Source of the DNA: Parcubacteria group bacterium Gr01-1014_31
GTDB lineage: Bacteria > Patescibacteriota > Patescibacteriia > Buchananbacterales > GWA2-38-13
Direction of reading: 5' to 3'
Assembly: GCA_007376135.1 (NCBI GenBank)
Contig: VMFR01000001.1
Coordinates: forward strand, 270,554 to 334,553
DNA: 64,000 bases
Part shown: one piece after another, positions 20,665 to 60,025 of the stretch
How the letters are laid out: the number at the start of each line of letters is the position of its first letter
Position numbering within the stretch: position 1 is the stretch's first letter
Notes under the pieces: model-generated
What the model was told of the DNA's origin: nothing
The model's database searches: none
Seen by the model: the letters and a program-made list of their open reading frames with translations, nothing else
Translations under genes and position numbers: made by a program

Positions 20665-21655
20665 CCTGTGGATATGTGCACAGGTATCCCTTGACAACAT
20701 AATACACAGGAGTATGCTGCCAATATATGGCCAAGAGCGACAAGTACGGTATCTACGACCTGCGCAACGAGTTCCCCACGGATGACGCCTGTTTGGAATA
20801 CATTTTCCGGGTGTTACACAGCGAACGCTGCTCGTGTGGGGGCCGTTACAAACGGCTACCCGAACGGCGGCAGTGGCAATGTTCCAAATGCCGCTACCAG
20901 ATCGCCCCGACAGCGGGTACCCTCTTTGAAAAATCTGCAACACCCTTGACCAAGTGGTTTCACGCCTTATTCGTCTTTTCCAGTGCGAAAAGCGGCCTGT
21001 CGGGCAAGCAACTGGAACGGGAACTGAACGTTACCTACAAGACCGCTTGGCGAATGTTAAAACTTATCCGGGCGTCCCTCCCCAACAAAAAACACCGCCT
21101 GCTGGGCGATGTGGAGATGGACGAAACCTACTTTGGTGGGAAAGGTAACGCCGGGAAGAACAACCAGGACCTAGGCAAAGTGATGGACGATAAATCCGTT
21201 ATCCTTGGCGCGGTGGAGCGCGACGGGGAAATCCGGGCAGAAGTGGCCCCGAACGCCAAGGCGGCGACCATCGGACAATTCCTCCATACCAACGTGGAGA
21301 GGGTCAAAACGCGCCTGCTGACCGATGAGAGCAACCGCTACGACTTGGTAGCCAAGCGGTACCACCGCCAGAGCGTCAACCACTCACAACAGGAGTACGT
21401 GCGGGACGACGTACATACCAACACCATTGAGGGGTTCTGGTCGCACGTGAAGCGCAGCATCTCCGGCACCCACAAGGCCGTATCTAGGCGGTATCTCCAG
21501 TCTTACCTGGATGGCTTCGTCTGGCACTATAACAACCGGCACAGCGACAGGGACCGTTTTTCCGCCTTGCTTTACGGCCTGTTGCGATGACGTGGCGCAG
21601 GGCCTCGTGGAACTTGATTTTTTTACCCGATTGTTCCATACTGTGTAACAATACC
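20665..21655 (+). mobile_element. IS1595-family insertion sequence (boundaries approximate)
   Basis: single transposase ORF; imperfect terminal inverted repeats cctgtggatatgtgcacaggtatccc (20665-20690) vs ccatactgtgtaacaatacc (21636-21655); AT-rich relative to surroundings. Confidence 0.45.
20727..21590 (+). CDS. IS1595-family transposase (ISXO2-like DDE domain with N-terminal zinc ribbon)
   Basis: N-terminal CxxC...CxxC zinc ribbon (CSCGG...CSKC), conserved TDESNRY and NTIEGFWSHVKR motifs. Confidence 0.85.
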   Translation: MAKSDKYGIYDLRNEFPTDDACLEYIFRVLHSERCSCGGRYKRLPERRQWQCSKCRYQIAPTAGTLFEKSATPLTKWFHALFVFSSAKSGLSGKQLERELNVTYKTAWRMLKLIRASLPNKKHRLLGDVEMDETYFGGKGNAGKNNQDLGKVMDDKSVILGAVERDGEIRAEVAPNAKAATIGQFLHTNVERVKTRLLTDESNRYDLVAKRYHRQSVNHSQQEYVRDDVHTNTIEGFWSHVKRSISGTHKAVSRRYLQSYLDGFVWHYNNRHSDRDRFSALLYGLLR

Positions 21656-22357: not shown

Positions 22358-22774
22358 CTAACCACCTAAATTCTCAATAATTCTTCTAAGTTTTGGCAAA
22401 ATTGCACCGGGGGGAGCACTCAATATTTCGCGCTTAATATTCTGCAGATCAGCATCGCATAAAGATCGGAGCATTTCGTAACCTTGTAAGGATGTCTCAT
22501 CATGATCTGTGTGGTGCAACATCGCTATACGTTCACGAAATTGTTCTGTGGTCAATCTGGTATATAGATAGACTGGAGAGTTCACATTTCTTGACGTACT
22601 TTGGGTTGGGGGCTGTGTCGAACGCCATTCATCTAGTCTTATGACTTGCCGTGAGGTTGCAACGTCCGGAATACATGCCAAAAAAATTATCCTTTCTTCC
22701 GGAACTGACCCTAAAAAAACATAGTCATTCTCTCCTTCGGTATCAGTTAGCCTAATTACGTTCCCGAATACCAT
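22358..22774 (-). CDS. hypothetical 138-aa protein, candidate toxin partner of the Panacea-domain antitoxin (possible HEPN-like Rx4H: RIAMLHH)
   Basis: ATG 2 nt downstream of the Panacea gene stop (translational coupling); low GC; no recognisable domain. Confidence 0.5.
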   Translation of the reverse strand: MVFGNVIRLTDTEGENDYVFLGSVPEERIIFLACIPDVATSRQVIRLDEWRSTQPPTQSTSRNVNSPVYLYTRLTTEQFRERIAMLHHTDHDETSLQGYEMLRSLCDADLQNIKREILSAPPGAILPKLRRIIENLGG

Positions 22775-22776
22775 AT

Positions 22777-23316
22777 CTACTTTAGGCTGACCAAAATTTT
22801 TATTTCTTCCTCAGTTATTTTACTATCATTATCAAGGGCGGCTAGAGAATAGGGTATTTCAGTTGGTTCTTTAGTATTAATCCATGCACTTTCACCATGA
22901 GATGCCTCGACGATATATTTTGTGTTTTTGTCGCTGAATCTCTGGCATACGTCCTTGAGAGTTTGCAATTCCCTCTCGGTGAAATATTCGTTATCACTTG
23001 CAGTGAACGGTTTCAGGCAGATAATTTTCTGAAAATTTCTACCATCAACAAACCTCACCGAAATCGTATCGGAGAGTAACGCTGTTTCCGGCTCATCTAT
23101 TACGCTATTAACAAGATTGAGAATATTTGATGGAACGGGGCCGCGCTCCAAATGAACATATCTATCGTAGGTAATTGGGACACCAAATTTTTTAACGTGT
23201 GTAAAATCAGCAAAATAAAAAAGTTTCATCAACTTCGTTTTTCCTAACAGATTAGGATCTGTATTGCTACAGAAAAACCTAATCATCGCCTTCAATTTTG
23301 TCCTTGGAATTCTCAT
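22777..23316 (-). CDS. Panacea-domain (DUF4065, SocA/GepA-like) putative antitoxin
   Basis: KLMKLFYFADFTHVKKFGVPITYDRYVHLERGPV matches the Panacea/DUF4065 core (KLxKLLYFAD...G.P....Y....GPV); GGGGG SD before ATG at 23314-23316; low GC. Confidence 0.7.
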   Translation of the reverse strand: MRIPRTKLKAMIRFFCSNTDPNLLGKTKLMKLFYFADFTHVKKFGVPITYDRYVHLERGPVPSNILNLVNSVIDEPETALLSDTISVRFVDGRNFQKIICLKPFTASDNEYFTERELQTLKDVCQRFSDKNTKYIVEASHGESAWINTKEPTEIPYSLAALDNDSKITEEEIKILVSLK

Positions 23317-23489
23317 TGGCACCCCCAACCACTAACAGGATAACACGATAATATTCTTTCTCCTAATAATACGACGACTTTAAGGCATTAATTCTATCAT
23401 AAATCCAATACAGTGTCAATATCTATGCATCTTAGTCATTTATTTCACTATTCTCCGCTCAACCCAGCAAAACAAAGTATGTTCGGGGG

Positions 23490-29278: not shown

Positions 29279-29325
29279 CCTCTCCCCTTGTGGGAGAGGG
29301 TTAGGGTGAGGGGGATCACCCAACA
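29279..29325. repeat. 45-bp hairpin repeat (copy A) in rplJ 5' UTR; second copy at 41336-41384
   Basis: ccctctcccc-ttgt-gggagaggg + ttagggtgagggggat; >90% identical (reverse-complement sense) to 41336-41384. Confidence 0.55.
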
Positions 29326-29367
29326 CCGATATACCGACCTCTGGGACCCCTAACTACAGGGGTGCGT

Positions 29368-29400
29368 AAATAAAAAATCTGCGGCGTTCCCGCAGACCAA
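29368..29400 (-). terminator. hairpin + U-run in rplJ leader on minus strand (attenuator-like)
   Basis: minus-strand ggtctgcgggaacgccgcagatttttta. Confidence 0.35.
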
Positions 29401-29609
29401 AACCACGAATGGTTCCCTCGGCCGGCCCGGGTTGCCCCGATTTACGCCTTGCGGCACCGACGGTCTTTGGAAACTGATTACCCGTATCCTACCATACCGG
29501 CGGCCGCTGTCAACTGCTTGACCACGCCGAAACGGGGGTGTAGCGTGGCTCATATTCGGTATTCACCGCCATCGAATTATCGCCCTTTCCCAGGAGGAGG
29601 TACAAACCC

Positions 29610-40020: not shown

Positions 40021-40701
40021 TCAGGAAACAAGGGTGCCGCTGAATTTTTTTCCCGCCAAGAATGATCGCAAATTTGCCAAGTTGCTACCCCGCATGATGA
40101 CCAAACGGATGCCGCGCGACCTAGCCAGCTTGGACGCGACCGGGTCGAACGGCACGTGCGCACCCGGCTTCCAGACACCGCCGACAATGCGCTTGAACGC
40201 AGGCCAGGAGAGCGACGGCAAGGGTTTCGCGCCCTTGAACCGCTTGGGGTCGCGGTCGTAGACGTAGTCGATATTCGAAAGATTCACCACCGTGTCCACA
40301 CTGAACGTCATTGCCGCCAGGACCGCATCTTTGTCGGAACTGCAGCCGGGTTTCCAGCCTGAGCCGATGATGATCTTCTTGCCCGTGCGGATCTTTTTCG
40401 TGGGATTGTAGAGCAGCTGGTGCTCGGCGTCCTTGCCGAACACGTCGCGCACCAGCCACGCGTTGAGTTTGGTCGCCTCAATGCCCAGCCAGTCCAGCTC
40501 GGTGGAGGTCACTTTCGGATTGAGCCGACGCACGGCATTGACGTACTCGCGCGCGGTGTTGCCCCCGCCGCAGACGATGATGGCGCGGTTCCCGCCCCGC
40601 ACATAGCGCAACACGACCCGCCGGAACCCCGCGAGGAACTTCGCATCAACGCCGTCAGGGGTGATGAGCGACCCGCCCAGGGAAAAGACGATGGTCTTCA
40701 T
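40021..40701 (-). CDS. pyrH: uridylate (UMP) kinase, archaeal-type
   Basis: IVFSLGGSLI, IIVCGGGNTAR amino-acid-kinase fold motifs; 226 aa. Confidence 0.8.
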   Translation of the reverse strand: MKTIVFSLGGSLITPDGVDAKFLAGFRRVVLRYVRGGNRAIIVCGGGNTAREYVNAVRRLNPKVTSTELDWLGIEATKLNAWLVRDVFGKDAEHQLLYNPTKKIRTGKKIIIGSGWKPGCSSDKDAVLAAMTFSVDTVVNLSNIDYVYDRDPKRFKGAKPLPSLSWPAFKRIVGGVWKPGAHVPFDPVASKLARSRGIRLVIMRGSNLANLRSFLAGKKFSGTLVS

Positions 40702-40784
40702 GGAACTTGGAACATGAAACTTGGAACAAGCGGAACAACTAAAATTGTTCCCTGTTCCATGCTATGGGTTTCAAGATATCACCA

Positions 40785-40860
40785 GCCAAACAGTTTCCCC
40801 ACCTCCTCGGCCGTTTCGCGCTTGCGCGCGACGATGAAACGGTAATTCCACTTTTCGGGC
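40785..40860 (-). pseudogene. relic copy of the 3' end of the arginine-decarboxylase-like gene (last ~24 codons)
   Basis: ~88% nt identity to 41958-42035. Confidence 0.45.
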
Positions 40861-40861
40861 G

Positions 40862-41263
40862 TTATGGAGTTGCACAACCATAACCTAATACCCCTCCACC
40901 ACCTACCACAGCTACTCCGTAGCTCTCGTTACCCATTGGATAGTTCGTAAATGGTTCATAACTACTGCAAACACCACGCAGCTTACCTAGACCGGTTTCT
41001 AACTGATTTGCTTTAAGCAACTCTAGCTGATCAGCCGATAACGTACACGTCCCTTGACACTCAGAGCTTGAACCACATGCCTTACCACCATCGGTTGTTG
41101 GCATACCACAAAATCCACTGCTATTCACTAAACACCAAGACCAGCGCCCTCCACGCAGCTGGCATGATATCTCTGGGGTTCTTTCGGGTAAAACCGCTGC
41201 TACGATGCCGAGCGAAACTATGACTACGCCAATGATCCCGAAAATTATGATAAATCGTTTCAT
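40862..41263 (-). CDS. Cys-rich small secreted/membrane-anchored protein, paralog 1
   Basis: N-terminal TM anchor, 8 Cys; shares CxxxGGRW, CxxxxECxxxC, GxCSxYxP motifs with 41483..41896; AT-rich promoter with cattttg repeats. Confidence 0.5.
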   Translation of the reverse strand: MKRFIIIFGIIGVVIVSLGIVAAVLPERTPEISCQLRGGRWSWCLVNSSGFCGMPTTDGGKACGSSSECQGTCTLSADQLELLKANQLETGLGKLRGVCSSYEPFTNYPMGNESYGVAVVGGGGVLGYGCATP

Positions 41264-41335
41264 AAAGCGACAGCTTGATAAATCATTTTGAATTTTGCCC
41301 TGTCATTTTGCACTTTGACTTTTGCATTATGATTT

Positions 41336-41384
41336 TCCAATCCCCCTCACCCCAACCCTCTCCCGCAAGGGGAGAGGGAAAATA
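41336..41384. repeat. 45-bp hairpin repeat (copy B)
   Basis: aatccccctcaccccaaccctctcccgcaaggggagaggg; reverse complement ~93% identical to 29279-29325. Confidence 0.55.
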
Positions 41385-41394
41385 TTTTTAAAGC

Positions 41395-41483
41395 CGGAAC
41401 CCGGCAAGGAAAGCTCGGTCGATGCCGTCAGGGGCAATCAGCGACCCGCCGAGGGAAAAGATGATGGTACTATGGTTCATTAT
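41395..41483 (-). pseudogene. relic 5' fragment of pyrH (first ~29 codons, MNHSTIIFSLGGSLIAPDGID...)
   Basis: ~80% nt identity to pyrH 5' end 40615-40701; no downstream continuation. Confidence 0.5.
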
Positions 41484-41896
41484 TATGGAATCTGACAGCT
41501 ATATCTTAATGGCTGATCTCGTGTCGAAATAATTCTACAAAAAATTCTTTCGGGCTCAATATAATTATACTTACTGCAAAGACCATGAATATTTTCACTT
41601 TGTTGCGGGGTCACCTTACTACCGTCATTGTATAAATCGATCTGATCTGGTGAAAGTATACAGAAAGCTTCGCATTCATCTTCCCCACGACATATCTTTC
41701 CCGCATCAAAAGTTGGGAAAATGCACCGTTTTTCACCGTCGCTTGTGTATGTGACCCACCTCCCGCCTAGCCAAAAACATTGCCGCCCTTCCCGACCTAA
41801 GGATATCGCCAGCAGAAGCGAAAAAACTGCTACCAATAAAACCGTAGTGGTGATAAAAGCAACGACTACAATCAAAATAAACTTTCGTCGTTTCAT
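41483..41896 (-). CDS. Cys-rich small secreted/membrane-anchored protein, paralog 2
   Basis: N-terminal TM anchor, 8 Cys, same motif skeleton and same cattttg-repeat promoter as paralog 1. Confidence 0.5.
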   Translation of the reverse strand: MKRRKFILIVVVAFITTTVLLVAVFSLLLAISLGREGRQCFWLGGRWVTYTSDGEKRCIFPTFDAGKICRGEDECEAFCILSPDQIDLYNDGSKVTPQQSENIHGLCSKYNYIEPERIFCRIISTRDQPLRYSCQIP

Positions 41897-41966
41897 AGAG
41901 CTTTGTACAAAATCATCATTTTCTCATTTTGTCTGTCATTTTGCATTTTGACTTTTGCATTTTCAT

Positions 41967-43334
41967 TCACCAGCCAAACAACTTCCCGACCTCCTCGGCC
42001 GTTTCGCGCTTGCGGGCGACGATAATGTGGCCGTTCTCGGCGATGATCTTGGCCGGCGACGACAGCAGGCAGTGGTGGGACGCTAGCGGGTCCTGGTAGG
42101 CACCAGAGTCCAGGAAGGTGACATACAACGGCTCGGCCGTGCTGGATGGATCAAAATCCGGCAGCAGCACGTAGCTGTTCTGGCCGGTGTACTTGTCGTC
42201 GGAATCGCAGGAGCTGCCCGCCAGCCACGTTTTGACCAATTTCTTGGATTCCAGGTGCGCGGTCGGCAGCACGTGCCACTTCTGGTGGATGGCCCAGGTG
42301 TCCAGCAGGTCGTTCATGAAACTGCCATCGATGACGTACCACTTCTTGGCCGTACCCTTGGCGATGGCCTTGGAATCAATAACCTTGTAGATGGTGACTT
42401 GTGCCGGCGCCACAATGTAGCGCCCCCACTCCACCGTCAGGTTGGGGTGCGGGATGCCGTTGCGGTCGGCGAATTTCTTCATCATCCGCAACATCTGGCC
42501 GGCGAGGTTGGCGACCGAATAGCCGACCTTGCGGTCGTACGGGATGGGCATGCCGCCGCCGATATCGATGGTATCCAGGGTCGGGTTGATCTTCTTGAGT
42601 TTGGTGAACACCTTGAGCGCGTAGCGCAACGGCTGCAGGATGTCGGCCTGCTTTTCGATCTGCGAGCCGACGTGGTAGTGCAGGATCTTCAGATTGCGCA
42701 TGCGGCCCAGGTGCAGCAGCTCCGATTCCGAGAAACCGAAGCGGTCCACCTGCTTGTCCCACCGCGAGTCCACCGTTACCTGCGGCGGAATGTCCAGGCG
42801 TACGCCGATGTCGTACCGGCTCTGCCCGAACACGCCCACTTCGTTCGGACCCTCGATGATCGGCATGACGGACAGGCCGCGATGCTGCAGCTCGTCGATG
42901 AGCCGGATGTACTTGTCCGTCTTTGGTCCGTTGCACAGGATCTTGATCTTGGGGTTGAACGTTGCCTGCTCCCACAACCGCTTGACCAGCCAGAGCTCAT
43001 TGGCCGACCCCGTTTCCAAATTGGCGCCCTCCGACACCAGCGGCATAACCACTTCCTTGTTCTGGTTGACCTTCATCGGGTAGTGGTAGGAAAACCGCCC
43101 GCGGTACTTGAGCGCCTTGATCTGGGCATTGAACAGGTCCAGCAGGTCCTCCAGCCGTTCTTCCAGGATGAAAGGAAAAACAACCTCCAGCGGCGTGCCG
43201 AATTTCTCGGCCAGGTAGCGGAGATTGTACTGGTTGTTGCCCTCGCGCACCAGCAGGTCACCCTTCTTGTCTACGTCGAAGTACTGGGTGTTGAACTCCC
43301 GCATGCCCAGTTTCCAAAAACGTTTTCTGTTCAT
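41967..43334 (-). CDS. PLP-dependent decarboxylase, fold III (arginine/ornithine/diaminopimelate decarboxylase family; SpeA-like)
   Basis: HYPMKVN PLP-lysine motif, DIGGGMPIPY, SSCDSDDKY substrate-loop motif. Confidence 0.7.
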   Translation of the reverse strand: MNRKRFWKLGMREFNTQYFDVDKKGDLLVREGNNQYNLRYLAEKFGTPLEVVFPFILEERLEDLLDLFNAQIKALKYRGRFSYHYPMKVNQNKEVVMPLVSEGANLETGSANELWLVKRLWEQATFNPKIKILCNGPKTDKYIRLIDELQHRGLSVMPIIEGPNEVGVFGQSRYDIGVRLDIPPQVTVDSRWDKQVDRFGFSESELLHLGRMRNLKILHYHVGSQIEKQADILQPLRYALKVFTKLKKINPTLDTIDIGGGMPIPYDRKVGYSVANLAGQMLRMMKKFADRNGIPHPNLTVEWGRYIVAPAQVTIYKVIDSKAIAKGTAKKWYVIDGSFMNDLLDTWAIHQKWHVLPTAHLESKKLVKTWLAGSSCDSDDKYTGQNSYVLLPDFDPSSTAEPLYVTFLDSGAYQDPLASHHCLLSSPAKIIAENGHIIVARKRETAEEVGKLFGW

Positions 43335-53976: not shown

Positions 53977-54447
53977 TTACTTCGCGTCCGGATGCAGGCG
54001 GCGATAGACATCGGGTGCGTGCTGTTTGAGCAGGTCATCCAGCGGGTTGACCCGTTTCACTTGTTTGAATTGCATGCCACGATGCGCACCGCCCTTGACC
54101 TTCTCGGCAAAACTTTGGATCAGCCGCGAACATTCGTCGGTTAACCCGAGGCCCTCACGTAATTTCGACATTTCGATATAGCGACGGTCGCGGGCGATGT
54201 ACAGTTGCGACCGCACTTCGCCCGCTTCCCCCTTGGCGATGTACAGCGCATCAATGAATTCCGCCTGCGTACCGCGGTCAAATCCCTCGGCGATGTTGGA
54301 CATCGTGGACACGGCCGCGCGGCGCATCTGGCGCTTGAGGTCTACGTCGCGGAATACTGGCGCGTCGGTAAGGTCGAAAATAAAATTCACCAAGGCCCGG
54401 CATTTCTGCCAGCACAATAAGTCTTCGAATTTCTGAACCGTGGCCAT
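53977..54447 (-). CDS. four-helix-bundle protein (23S rRNA intervening-sequence protein family, TIGR02436)
   Basis: FEDLLCWQKCRAL...MSNIAEGFDR...AKGEAGEVRSQLYIA signature. Confidence 0.75.
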   Translation of the reverse strand: MATVQKFEDLLCWQKCRALVNFIFDLTDAPVFRDVDLKRQMRRAAVSTMSNIAEGFDRGTQAEFIDALYIAKGEAGEVRSQLYIARDRRYIEMSKLREGLGLTDECSRLIQSFAEKVKGGAHRGMQFKQVKRVNPLDDLLKQHAPDVYRRLHPDAK

Positions 54448-54584
54448 ACTATTGATATTTCGAAATTACGATATCTCGATATTTCGAAATCTCCATTCTT
54501 GTGATCTCATGAGGTCGGTATATCGAAATTTTGCTATCTCAATATACTTAGGACAAACTACCAGATGCTCGAAATTTCGAGATA
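54448..54584. repeat. AT-rich cluster of palindromic TTTCGAAA-containing repeats (putative operator array)
   Basis: atatttcgaaat (x2), tatatcgaaatttt, ctcgaaatttcgag palindromes within 137 bp; ~30% GC. Confidence 0.55.
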
Positions 54585-55053: not shown

Positions 55054-55560
55054 TCATTTTGCCCCCACCTGCCCCTGAAGTCCTTGGACTACGGGCCAAA
55101 ATAAGGGCAAGCAATTATCTTCCTTGACTTCAGCGATGTTCAACCACGCGACATCGGCAATCTCGTCCTCGACGATGGTATTGATGACCTGCTTGTCTTG
55201 CTTCTCGCTCGTCAATTTGGCGCGGTACATCAAGGCGATAGCGCGGAAATATTTCTGGTCGCGGGTGCCGAAAAAATTCTTCTCACCGATGTAGAACGGC
55301 TGTTCCTCGGCCTGGACGCGGTACCCGGTCTCCTCGTAGACCTCGCGCAGCAGGCCCTCGTGCAGCGACTCGGAAATTTCTACTCCCCCGCCGGGCAGCT
55401 CCCACCGATTGTTGTGCATCTGCTTGATGAACAGATGCTTGCCCCCGCGCTCAACCAGCGCATAAACCGAAATGCGCCATACCGGCGCAACGTCCCCCGG
55501 TTTCTTGTGGACTATGCCAAGGTAATCTTTGTAGATCTCCTTGCTTTCTGGGGCCGTCAT
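55054..55560 (-). CDS. NUDIX hydrolase
   Basis: Nudix box GGGVEISESLHEGLLREVYEETG. Confidence 0.8.
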   Translation of the reverse strand: MTAPESKEIYKDYLGIVHKKPGDVAPVWRISVYALVERGGKHLFIKQMHNNRWELPGGGVEISESLHEGLLREVYEETGYRVQAEEQPFYIGEKNFFGTRDQKYFRAIALMYRAKLTSEKQDKQVINTIVEDEIADVAWLNIAEVKEDNCLPLFWPVVQGLQGQVGAK

Positions 55561-55600
55561 ACCACGTCAGTATACCGTATTTCGTCGCCCCACAAACAGT

Positions 55601-56266
55601 TCAACTCCATATTTCATATTTCTTACCAAACACTATCCTTATCCCGCCATAAACATTATAGAAAAATGAAAATAGGTCGTAGAGAAACGGAACCTTAACA
55701 CCAAATATATATATCTCAATATTCCCGAATATTTTTGGCTTCACCATTTTATATTCCTTTTCCAAAACGTTTTTGTCAATTTTTCTTTTGGGATTCAGAA
55801 ACGATTGATAAATGCCGGCCAGCACCGATGACAGCGGGATACCAACAAATTCAAGGTTCTCAAAATGATACGGGGTTCGCCTCAAATAATCGGACGTGAT
55901 CCGAATTTCACCTACTTTCATAAAACGCCGGGAAAAATAGTCTTTGGTGAATTTACCCACCAACAGAAAGGTCAACCCAAGGTACTCATCCTTTGCTGCT
56001 TCAGTCCAACGAAATCCCATTTTCATTTTATTTTCCAGCGTAAAGCCCGCTTTCCTCAGGTGTTCAAAAACACATTCCTTGTTTTCCTCATCGAGCACGA
56101 CGTCAAGGTCGCCGATATGACGGAATACTCGACCAACATGGGCAGCGATCAGCGTCGAACCGACTATCCTGTATTCGGCGTTACATAATCGAAAAATATC
56201 AGTCGCGATTTGCAGCGTGTTGATAATTTTTTGCTTTTCATGTTGCCTCTCTCCGTCGGCGTGCAT
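55601..56266 (-). CDS. minimal nucleotidyltransferase (Pol-beta superfamily; aminoglycoside/lincosamide NTase-like), low GC
   Basis: hG[GS]...DhD signature IVGSTLIAAHVGRVFRHIGDLDVVLDEE; ~40% GC versus ~65% background. Confidence 0.55.
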   Translation of the reverse strand: MHADGERQHEKQKIINTLQIATDIFRLCNAEYRIVGSTLIAAHVGRVFRHIGDLDVVLDEENKECVFEHLRKAGFTLENKMKMGFRWTEAAKDEYLGLTFLLVGKFTKDYFSRRFMKVGEIRITSDYLRRTPYHFENLEFVGIPLSSVLAGIYQSFLNPKRKIDKNVLEKEYKMVKPKIFGNIEIYIFGVKVPFLYDLFSFFYNVYGGIRIVFGKKYEIWS

Positions 56267-56344
56267 ATTCAATTTTCATCCCCATTGATTCGATGGCTTA
56301 AATGTCGCTACTCAGTACTGATAACCATACTATCCCATAGTAAC

Positions 56345-58133: not shown

Positions 58134-58616
58134 TCAAAATACCAATTTATCAACCCAGGATGGGACTCTAGGATTTTCAACTTTATCGTACTGGGGCCAA
58201 TAGGGTTTGATATCAACAACCGGCGTGTCGTTGAGAATATCCAATCCTTTTACTTTCAAAATATTGCCAACTCTACCCACCAGTTCAACCGTCGATAGCG
58301 CGATGGGATTTGGCCGCTGGGGACATCGGCACGCGAAAATCCCGCCGAACGGCACATCCGCCCTTCCCTGCGGGTGATGCCGCAGATGGCAGTGCTTCTC
58401 CTTATCCAGCCAGTAGACGACCATGATATGCGAATACTCCTCAATACCATCCAGACCCTTCGCGTATTCCTCGTTGATGACGATGTCAGTGACCACGTCC
58501 TTCCACCCCGGCAACGTCGGTTTATCTACCGAGTTTTTCGCGTACCCCAAGGGTCGCATGGTGATGGAACCATCCGCATTGGCGCTGCCTAAAAATTTAC
58601 AGAATTCGGTTTCCAT
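58134..58616 (-). CDS. tsaA: tRNA (adenine37-N6)-methyltransferase TsaA (YaeB/UPF0066 family)
   Basis: IMVVYWLDK, VPFGGIFACRCPQRPNPIALSTVELV, DGTPVVDIKPY motifs; GGGGG SD before ATG at 58614-58616. Confidence 0.75.
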   Translation of the reverse strand: METEFCKFLGSANADGSITMRPLGYAKNSVDKPTLPGWKDVVTDIVINEEYAKGLDGIEEYSHIMVVYWLDKEKHCHLRHHPQGRADVPFGGIFACRCPQRPNPIALSTVELVGRVGNILKVKGLDILNDTPVVDIKPYWPQYDKVENPRVPSWVDKLVF

Positions 58617-58638
58617 ACTGCCCCCATTATACGCTTTT

Positions 58639-58661
58639 GGCACCTTTTCAGAAAAGGTGCC
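58639..58661. repeat. GGCACC hairpin repeat family, copy C (perfect palindrome)
   Basis: ggcaccttttcagaaaaggtgcc. Confidence 0.5.
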
Positions 58662-58738
58662 ACTGAAAATCGGCTTTCTTGGTACCTCTCTAAGAAAGGT
58701 GGCAATACTACTGCCCGTGGCATTTTTTCTGTGTATTA

Positions 58739-59170
58739 CTAACCCGCAGGGAAGTTTATTTCGAGAACTTCCCACGGTTGCCTAGAAACATCTGTATAGC
58801 GTATCCATTTCGGGATTATTTTAAAAAATTTAATCCCCAGCTTCTCAAACTTCACCGCCTCGGGGAACTTCGCGAAGTGTACCTGTTTATATTCCTCAAG
58901 TTCACTATCACTTAATTCGACTGTAATCCCTTCATATTGTACTGTTGCAGGTTCCCACCCAACCACCACAGAGACATTCTGGTTACTTTTCAGATTCTCA
59001 TACTTTCGGAAAGTCGACAGTGTGTCGAATATCAGCTCAAGATTCTCGCGAGCTGAAAGCTCCACCACGGCTGATTCCGATGTATTTTCTGAAGTTACAG
59101 TGGACAATACAGCCAGTTTGTTCTGGTTTATCAACGTCTTTATCTTTCTAATTTTGACATTATCTTCCAT
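58739..59170 (-). CDS. pyridoxamine 5'-phosphate oxidase-like FMN-binding split-barrel protein, low GC
   Basis: KLAVLSTV...VVGWEP pattern of PNPOx-like/general stress protein 26 family. Confidence 0.55.
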   Translation of the reverse strand: MEDNVKIRKIKTLINQNKLAVLSTVTSENTSESAVVELSARENLELIFDTLSTFRKYENLKSNQNVSVVVGWEPATVQYEGITVELSDSELEEYKQVHFAKFPEAVKFEKLGIKFFKIIPKWIRYTDVSRQPWEVLEINFPAG

Positions 59171-59182
59171 AAACTTGTGTTT

Positions 59183-59320
59183 CTATTTCCCGTGACACTT
59201 CTTGAACCCTTCGACAAACTCAGGGTAGGCTTCTTCCCTCACCGTCCCGCCGTTGGCGGGACTCCGCTCGTTCCTACCAATTTCAAGCTTACTTTCCATG
59301 GCAATGCTAATACTAATTGC
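59183..59320 (+). repeat. ~135-bp dispersed repeat, copy 1 (translates spuriously to ...PFDKLR...TPLVPTNFK.TF.GNA)
   Basis: ~80% nt identity to 60068-60200. Confidence 0.55.
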
Positions 59321-59546
59321 CACGCGGATCGCCCAAATACTGAAATCGTGGCATCTTCTTACCATCAACTTCTACTTCCTCCAAAAACATCTTCAGCGGC
59401 CGCGCCCATAGATCAAAATCGCCATATAATGCTCGGTAAATTACCAATTCTTCCAGTGTCTCGCTGTGTCGCGCAGTACCGATAACTTCGTATTCTTTGC
59501 CCTTATAGTGTTGGTATTTTCCTAATTTAAGCATGCTATTTTCCAT
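59313..59546 (-). CDS. DUF1653 domain protein
   Basis: [15 protein letters not shown]...[10 protein letters not shown] signature; low GC. Confidence 0.7.
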
Positions 59547-59581
59547 GACATTTTTGTTGCTTATTATCCATACCGCAGGAA

Positions 59582-60025
59582 TTATACTTCTTTAAGTTCA
59601 AATCTTAGAATCGTTTTCCCCTCCGTCCAGACTTTTTCACCAAGTTTTTTCAGGTTCTGTAAATCTTCCTTATAAACATACCCGAATACATTGACGCAGT
59701 CGGAAAGTTTTGCTTCTCCATATACGATTGCGATGCTTCGGCTTACTTCGTTCCCTGGAATCGGAGAAGCATAACCCAATTCACCAACTTTCAAATTTAT
59801 AGAGGCATTTTCCTGTGGAATATTCAGTGATGGACCCTCTTTAATCCATATTTCTTCCCCAGCAAATCTTGCTTGTAACGCATTTGCTTCCAGCGGCAAC
59901 GCTTTGATAAATTCATCGCAAGTAACCGGAGCCTCTTTTTCGTAAAGATTAAATCTTATCGCTGGCAGGCCTTTGGTTTTAAGTTCAATGTAGAGCATAC
60001 ATTTGACTTCTACTTCCCGCGACAT
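59582..60025 (-). CDS. hypothetical protein (147 aa), low GC
   Basis: ATG ORF, no recognised domain. Confidence 0.45.

Follow-up and report, generated by a model that had tools for sequence, protein, structure and literature searches.

Putative single-gene cassettes on intervening-sequence-type arms at a decarboxylase/pyrH junction of a Patescibacteria genome

The junction between a decarboxylase gene and a pyrH-like gene was analysed in a 64,000-nucleotide stretch of DNA (hereafter the window) from Parcubacteria group bacterium Gr01-1014_31 (assembly GCA_007376135.1, contig VMFR01000001.1, positions 270,554 to 334,553). This junction is, on balance, probably an insertion hot spot where the window holds two independent low-GC cassettes, each carrying one gene on arms of the type that bounds 23S rRNA intervening sequences (IVS). 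Each cassette is made of a heptamer-repeat left arm, a short leader open reading frame (ORF) and a gene coding for a protein with eight cysteines, cys1 or cys2. The leader would be a remnant of the N-terminus of S23p/IVP, the usual cargo of such elements, whose stop overlaps the next start (ATGA). The Cys gene stands in the loop of the element where that cargo is normally found, and would have replaced the S23p ORF just past its first codons. The right arms have been lost in the window; both arms still surround a Cys gene in the lineage of a related locus, L110. The arm may provide the Cys gene with its start of translation, the leader ORF acting by termination-reinitiation, and perhaps with signals for transcription. 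The fragments of both neighbouring genes that lie between the cassettes would be the marks of older recombination joints.

The new components are the non-S23p cargo, the site between protein-coding genes and a previously undescribed Cys-rich domain family. The rRNA IVS with S23p, dispersed palindromes and recombination scars are of kinds already known. The mobility, the expression and the function of the cassettes are inferred only.

A dispersed arm and its cargo

The two Cys-rich genes had originally been predicted to stand behind one and the same promoter, made of cattttg repeats. To judge from its copies elsewhere, this shared upstream sequence instead belongs to a dispersed inverted-repeat element of 23S rRNA IVS type, of which it is the left arm. 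The 25-mer core of the repeat, TGCAAAAGTCAAANTGCAAAATGAC, is identical in 27 metagenome contigs whose GC content ranges from 0.34 to 0.61, and no copy of the arm pattern was found in viral contigs. Most copies begin a few bases past a stop codon, for instance in the rpsD/rpoA, rpmJ/rpsM and rpsC/rplP gaps. Many directly adjoin their own reverse complement, which makes a long AT-rich palindrome, empty and intergenic; the palindrome of L082 folds with -26 kcal/mol (z -4.6). Within six contigs the palindrome lies inside a 23S rRNA gene, as confirmed for L083 and L084 with the Rfam model RF02541 of the large-subunit (LSU) rRNA, and there it is an rRNA intervening sequence. Two further loci, L085 and L093, carry the arms about 360-380 nt apart on either side of a gene of the PF05635 family 23S_rRNA_IVP (S23p).

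Over the whole 64 kb of the window, the arm model, R1, detected just two copies, each in left-arm orientation (copy 1, 57.8 bits, E 7e-17; copy 2, 49.2 bits, E 3e-14), and no right arm on either strand. Both copies keep the heptamer rhythm CAAAATG/TCAAAAT/GCAAAAG, their longest exact match is about 15 nt, and alone they do not fold (z +0.2 for copy 2 and +0.3 for the other). A scan for sigma-70 promoters gave one weak 9/12 match (ATGACA-16-GATGAT) upstream of cys2 and none upstream of cys1, the promoters of Patescibacteria being uncharacterised; five sigma-70-like sites were observed in the region for 2.0 expected. A literature search returned no description of the arm or of the Cys family.

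The association of such arms with a Cys-rich gene is best seen around P0002, the second-closest homologue, which is carried by four contigs from different samples (L109, L110, L111 and L112). P0002 lies downstream of YceG and decarboxylase genes in L109 and L110, and in L110 and L111 a pyrH-like gene begins after it; the junction is the one studied in the window. The left arm of L110 is located just past the decarboxylase stop and the right arm between the Cys gene and pyrH. These arms are 44 nt long, 77% complementary and recognised by R1 on opposite strands (E 7e-13 and 2e-8). In L110 as in the window, 70 nt separate the decarboxylase stop from the ATG of the Cys gene, and the ATG codons of cys1, cys2, P0002 and P0001 fall in one column of the arm-anchored alignment. 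Comparison of the filled junction of L110 with the empty junction of L003 reveals the inverted repeats in L110 but no clear target-site duplication.

Upstream of cys1, cys2 and P0002, a leader in the frame of IVP (MQNAKVKMQNDK... in L085) is open over 17-25 codons. Its TGA stop overlaps the ATG of the Cys gene as ATGA in these three of the four cassettes, and no Shine-Dalgarno-like sequence was found before the three ATGs. The fourth cassette, that of P0001 (the closest homologue of cys1, in L108), has a degenerate left arm (R1 E 1e-3), a broken leader and a different context. On either side of P0001, L108 carries the 3' end of a neighbouring gene, which codes for a 109-aa protein (3-116 and 950-1064). 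This is another duplication of a gene end beside such a cassette, in an unrelated context.

In the lineages of both the window and L110, the GC content of the Cys genes is 10-15 points lower than that of the adjacent genes. In the window, the insert as a whole has a GC content of 0.36-0.49 versus 0.60-0.68 for its flanks, which agrees with the original proposal that the Cys-rich genes are cassette-like additions.

The same prediction held that the two genes are paralogues arisen by local duplication. Paralogy within one family of Cys-rich extracytoplasmic proteins is well supported, since cys1 and cys2 share 30-35% identity (47-49 bits; 30% over 103 aa at E 2e-13). Local duplication is not, since cys1 is closer to P0001 (41% over 130 aa, 98 bits) than to cys2. 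Furthermore, the non-coding arm is far better kept than the Cys coding sequence, with 85% identity between the window copies and an identical core across the community. Both observations make two separate cassettes likelier than a recent duplication.

The family of Cys-rich proteins

The Cys-rich proteins form a real, hitherto undescribed domain family that extends into Proteobacteria and has no Pfam entry, solved structure or fold match. Exhaustive profile searching with these two domains retrieved 280 representative clusters at E<=1e-3. A typical member is about 130 aa long and most often contains eight cysteines. An N-terminal hydrophobic segment was recognised in 110 of 130 small members and a lipobox-like motif in 30 of the 130. 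The family pattern reads C-x3-GGxW ... C-x-(L)PT-x-D-x-GK-x-C-x5-EC-x-G-x-C ... G-x-C ... GC ... C-x-D, and C34, G39, C52, D58, C63, C69 and C73 are invariant in 45 aligned sequences.

All eight canonical Cys positions are present in cys2. The cys1 protein and P0001 do not have the seventh family cysteine and possess an additional one at position 44 (C44), a replacement that would imply a re-paired disulfide. The shared eight-cysteine skeleton announced for the two proteins is therefore right in number, as each has eight, but the skeletons are not identical, cys1 being a variant at C44. The predicted N-terminal membrane segment was recovered in both as a strongly hydrophobic stretch (maximum 15-residue Kyte-Doolittle hydropathy 3.2 for cys1 and 3.0 for cys2), which may be a cleaved signal or an anchor. 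The AlphaFold2 (AF2) model of cys1, computed from the 45-sequence alignment, has a mean confidence (pLDDT) of 79, exceeding 90 over much of residues 31-80, and consists of an N-terminal helix (residues 2-24) and a small alpha/beta domain.

No relationship to a described family emerged from the searches. Pfam gave no match for cys1 and cys2 and, for 45 family members, stray weak matches to Cys-rich models of the colipase or Dickkopf type (E>=0.004). A sequence profile search of the PDB with the Cys family returned nothing relevant, and Foldseek comparison of the AF2 model of cys1 with PDB and viral structures gave no match (best E 2.9 and 0.7). A word-indexed protein search found no match for cys1 and cys2; with the 45-sequence profile it found 13 proteins, all annotated as 'hypothetical'. 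No conserved partner genes were found in the neighbourhoods of the proteobacterial members. Some longer members have the Cys domain at their C-terminus, once after a staphylococcal-nuclease (SNase) domain and once after an immunoglobulin-like (Ig-like) domain, fusions that hint at a possible binding or anchoring module. The Cys proteins are most likely disulfide-stabilised binding modules, exposed at the surface or secreted, that diversify fast. The roles of bacteriocin, adhesin or signalling peptide once suggested for them were not pointed to by family, fold or gene context.

History of the junction

The pieces of the junction are listed in Table 1. On the minus strand they follow each other in the order decarboxylase, repeat, cys2, pyrH relic, hairpin, repeat, cys1, decarboxylase relic, spacer and pyrH-like gene, as originally described; every piece is present, and the similarities among them are far above chance. 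Self-BLAST of the region aligns the decarboxylase end with its relic (93% over 57 nt, E 4e-20), the pyrH start with its relic (82% over 77 nt, E 3e-15) and repeat copy 1 with copy 2 (85% over 54 nt, E 8e-11). The fragments are thus genuine relics of both neighbouring genes. The range of 80-88% first given for their identity to the parent genes holds for the pyrH relic and is too low for that of the decarboxylase. The latter relic is real but shorter and differently placed than the roughly 75 bp at 40860-40785 first assigned to it (Table 1). The gap between cys2 and the ORF of the pyrH relic is 2 bases.

Table 1. Features of the decarboxylase/pyrH junction in the window, in minus-strand order (positions within the 64,000-nucleotide stretch).
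Feature	Position	Strand	Description
Decarboxylase gene (A)	41967-43334	minus	Intact, 455 aa; pyridoxal-phosphate (PLP)-dependent, ornithine/arginine/diaminopimelate (Orn/Arg/DAP) type; Pfam PF02784 E 1e-24, and PF00278
Repeat copy 2	41912-41967	minus	Left arm of the IVS-type inverted-repeat element; starts from the decarboxylase stop codon; CAAAATG heptamer rhythm
Leader upstream ORF (uORF) of copy 2	41970-41893	minus	TGA overlapping the cys2 ATG
cys2	41483-41896	minus	137 aa; N-terminal hydrophobic anchor or signal; canonical 8-Cys domain; GC 0.41
pyrH 5' relic (B')	ORF 41388-41480, homology 41393-41468	minus	First ~28 codons of the pyrH-like gene; 30-codon ORF; stop at the hairpin
G-rich hairpin (CCCTCTCCCC..GGGAGAGGG..GGGGTGAGGGG)	about 41342-41380		Fold -23.1 kcal/mol
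Repeat copy 1	41279-41337	minus	Second left arm of the same element; 85% identical to copy 2
Leader uORF of copy 1	41340-41260	minus	TGA overlapping the cys1 ATG
cys1	40862-41263	minus	133 aa; N-terminal anchor or signal; 8 Cys, variant pattern; GC 0.47
Decarboxylase 3' relic (A')	40779-40841	minus	Last ~20 codons and stop; about 57-63 nt; begins 20 nt past cys1
Spacer ig2	40702-40778	minus	77 nt; empty heptamer-periodic palindrome of GTTCCAA type; RNA fold -23.7 kcal/mol, z -4.55
pyrH-like gene (B)	40021-40701	minus	Intact, 226 aa, amino-acid-kinase family; Pfam PF00696 E 1e-22

The decarboxylase places the window among uncultured Patescibacteria (candidate phyla radiation, CPR). The junction was compared in five relatives, designated like the other loci by labels given to the sequences retrieved in this analysis. 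Their decarboxylases are identical to that of the window at 96% (L001), 88% (L002), 84% (L110), 83.5% (L003) and 69.5% (L004) of amino acid positions. The DNA of the window and L001 is about 85-86% identical over 13 kb, and they accordingly belong to different species. The decarboxylase and pyrH-like genes are 6 nt apart in L003, which represents the empty junction with no Cys-rich gene, and about 155 nt apart in L004. Among 80 decarboxylase-encoding loci, the synteny of the two genes is kept only in L001, L003 and L004, and tblastn of cys1 and cys2 against these 80 loci gave no match.

The most informative relative is L001, in which the order is decarboxylase, a 72-nt palindrome, the pyrH 5' relic, a G-rich hairpin, a DUF559 gene (134 aa, PF04480 E 7e-37), a second G-rich hairpin and pyrH. 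L001 has neither Cys-rich genes nor a decarboxylase relic. The pyrH relics of the window and L001 stop at the same nucleotide at the hairpin and have derived bases in common. Relic and hairpin (window 41329-41468, L001 7446-7586) are 91.5% identical over 141 nt, versus 85-86.5% DNA identity for the flanking genes. Hence the joint either existed before the two species separated or passed between them. To go by this comparison, the joint between pyrH relic and hairpin is unrelated to the Cys-rich genes, which L001 lacks. Since L001 has this joint and no decarboxylase relic, the relics record at least two separate events, the older of which is unrelated to the Cys genes. The junction duplication invoked by the original prediction is not supported, given this base-for-base copy of the pyrH relic and hairpin in a genome that has a DUF559 gene there.

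A second copy of the G-rich hairpin is present in the window at 29285-29320 (1 mismatch in 21). It adjoins the upstream side of a minus-strand gene start, and a non-coding, structured-looking stretch of about 280 nt (29320-29600) comes next. A role of the hairpin as a terminator on the gene strand was considered and rejected, its T-run being on the opposite strand. An Rfam scan of the region yielded one chance-level microRNA match, on the hairpin.

A heptamer-periodic palindrome that differs from one relative to the other also occupies the junction. Its repeat is GTTCCAA in the window (40702-40778), AGCTTGT in L001 (7369-7440) and AGCTTAT in L002 (3788-3866). This suggests that hairpin elements of interchangeable sequence form a whole class.

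For the decarboxylase relic, the preferred explanation is import of a block of DNA. The relic, the spacer and pyrH would represent the uninterrupted junction, with the decarboxylase cut 60 nt before its stop. The imported block would run from a decarboxylase end through the cys2 cassette, pyrH relic and hairpin to the cys1 cassette. Two joins would have placed it in this junction, a homologous crossover within the decarboxylase gene and an illegitimate one 60 nt upstream of the stop. This could have come about by homology-facilitated illegitimate recombination; alternatively, a circular copy of the block could have been integrated by a single crossover of Campbell type. In favour of import, the relic has bases of the L002/L003 type at three positions where the intact gene end has those of L001. 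The ending GGCTGGTGA, present in both the relic and the intact gene of the window and absent from the four relatives aligned, is neutral or contrary to it. We consider import of the block possible but somewhat doubtful.

Several observations weigh against the reading of the junction as a site of independent cassette insertions. No transposase, integrase or target-site duplication was found for the element, so its mobility is deduced from its distribution only. Typical members of the wider family (P0015, P0016 and P0034) and a tandem pair in L113 have no arms, which limits the association with arms to the subfamily of cys1, cys2, P0002 and, weakly, P0001. The common site and spacing in L110 could designate an old resident gene rather than repeated insertion. 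The pyrH relic is better kept between species than the flanking genes, unlike a neutral relic, and this excess of conservation points to recent exchange or to some constraint. The joint between cys1 and the decarboxylase relic is known from one assembly, no second assembly confirming it. The import model draws on 57 nt with few informative bases, and no step marking a crossover was detected in the identity to L001 along the decarboxylase gene. Finally, the expression, the secretion and the disulfides of the Cys proteins are predicted only.

The two members of L113 are located at 381-761 and 779-1156, 17 nt apart, on a contig of GC 0.30. Without arms, they indicate that tandem paralogy arises in the family independently of the element.

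Some of these observations would be accounted for by a resident, fast-evolving Cys gene under diversifying selection, the AT-rich arms and hairpins being ordinary intergenic stem-loops of fast turnover such as terminators or processing sites. The position and the 70-nt spacing are alike for cys2 and for L110, whose decarboxylase is 84% identical, ordinary chromosomal genes devoid of arms are known from the wider family, and some heptamer-periodic palindrome stands at the junction in every relative. However, L003 and L001 have no Cys gene, the deficit in GC recurs in both lineages and cys1 is found at a non-native joint. Local turnover of hairpins would moreover be insufficient to produce an arm core identical in 27 unrelated contigs, including within 23S rRNA and around IVP genes. 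A resident gene is consequently judged unlikely.

Less probable still is a tandem duplication of the segment made of the decarboxylase 3' end and the pyrH 5' end, giving the order A, B', A', B, after which one Cys gene would have been duplicated locally with its promoter and would have diverged. The order of intact A, B relic, A relic and intact B is exactly what such an event would leave, the ending GGCTGGTGA is common to the relic and the window's own decarboxylase and absent from the relatives, and tandem paralogues do exist in L113. Nevertheless, the identical pyrH-relic/hairpin joint of L001 shows that the relics are not the product of one event, and cys1 is nearer to an outside protein, P0001, than to cys2. 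The repeat being a community-wide element, its 85% identity is uninformative about local duplication, and the relic resembles L002/L003 at the three positions where the intact gene resembles L001.

An assembly chimera, in which two strain alleles (one with decarboxylase, cys2 and pyrH, the other with cys1 or the empty junction) would have been joined serially, is very unlikely: the window stems from a metagenome-type genome, its proteins are absent from a public gene index (no exact match for cys1, cys2 or pyrH) and its layout, known from assembled sequence and not from reads, can be read as two alleles end to end, but the pyrH-relic/hairpin joint was assembled independently from another sample in L001, which renders a chimera unlikely there, though less clearly so at the joint between cys1 and the decarboxylase relic, the pyrH relic is truncated and diverged (82%) with no second full allele, both relics differ by 7-18% from their parent genes, and no repeat at the joint between cys1 and the decarboxylase relic is long enough for a false join, the longest exact match between the two arms being about 15 nt.

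Comparison with known systems and other insertions

The cassettes most resemble the 23S rRNA IVS with an S23p/PF05635 ORF of Coxiella burnetii and Leptospira, in which a single small ORF is enclosed by a long stem of paired inverted repeats. In Coxiella, the IVS is bounded by terminal inverted repeats, has its S23p ORF directly preceded by heptamers in tandem and is excised by RNase III (PMC4990558); the heptamer repeats upstream of the ORFs in the window are comparable to its GACAGAT repeats (PMC4990558). Copies of the window arm occur in LSU rRNA (L083, L084) and around PF05635 genes (L085, L093), and the leader ORF of the window follows the reading frame of the N-terminal part of IVP. Unlike in these systems, the window copies are located between protein-coding genes and not in 23S rRNA, and their cargo is a gene for a Cys-rich, predicted extracytoplasmic protein instead of S23p. 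The stem-forming terminal inverted repeats seen in L110, L085 and L093 are absent from the window, which has left arms only.

Miniature inverted-repeat transposable elements (MITE) and repetitive extragenic palindromes (REP) are likewise short, non-autonomous, intergenic inverted repeats dispersed in many genomes, often just past stop codons. The element type of the window differs from them by its protein-coding cargo, by the lack of a transposase partner and of any clear target-site duplication among the copies found, and by an arm conserved across genomes of GC 0.34 to 0.61. Integron cassette arrays offer another parallel, in which small single genes, each with no obvious promoter, are lined up in the same direction at a single site whose occupancy varies among close relatives. 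In contrast with integrons, no integrase was found in the ORFs between 38.5 and 44.5 kb, the only part of the window searched for one, and the arms stand on the 5' side of the gene, have their pairing partner on its 3' side and bear no resemblance to attC.

Homology-facilitated illegitimate recombination accompanies natural transformation in Acinetobacter and Streptococcus pneumoniae, and combines one homologous anchor with one illegitimate end. A short, diverged duplicate of a piece of the anchor gene is expected beside the insert, as with both relics. In the window this route is read from the layout only, with no microhomology at the joint between cys1 and the decarboxylase relic and no known donor genome. 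Lastly, the hairpin at the pyrH relic is the same as the one flanking the DUF559 (PF04480) endonuclease-like gene of L001, a gene type associated with G-rich hairpins. The window has no DUF559 gene, having lost it or never had it, and bears the cys1 cassette in its place.

More tentatively than for the junction itself, IVS-type elements might constitute a general mobile vehicle for single-gene cassettes in Patescibacteria, whose arms could shuttle from helices of 23S rRNA to intergenic positions in protein-coding operons and back, exchange S23p for other cargo, here a hypervariable disulfide-rich surface protein, and supply a translation start through the coupled leader ORF. The origin and the mobility of rRNA intervening sequences have been an open question since their discovery. 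The presence of one arm sequence in 23S rRNA, around S23p, as empty palindromes and around a gene for a predicted secreted protein makes the notion of the IVS as a mobile cassette testable. If true, it would give rRNA intervening sequences the identity of mobile elements and would represent a new route for the diversification of surface proteins in minimal symbionts. Patescibacteria, whose genomes are tiny, live attached to host cells. If fast-evolving, disulfide-rich surface proteins are swapped at this junction among close relatives, it would be a candidate determinant of the interaction with hosts or phages.

Many foreign-looking insertions are present in this genome beyond the decarboxylase/pyrH junction. 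One low-GC island contains a gene of the 23S_rRNA_IVP family (156 aa; PF05635, E 4.5e-29), on the minus strand at 53977-54530. Ahead of this gene stands another kind of heptamer-periodic arm (ATTTCGAAAT/ATCGAGAT...), whose complement falls within the ORF (54158-54185). Gene and arm make up a second element of IVS type in the window, located outside rRNA and bearing other arms. Other low-GC islands, with GC down to 0.33, were observed at 20727-21590, 22358-23328, 55054-56272 and 58134-60025; the islands include an ORF for an IS1595/ISXO2-like transposase and several small accessory genes. In L091, L100, L102 and L092, the arm is found beside other repeats of heptamer type (AGTCAGT runs, ATGCGAA runs) and beside GTCATTGCGAG-type repeats, and these genomes appear to be rich in several such repeat families.

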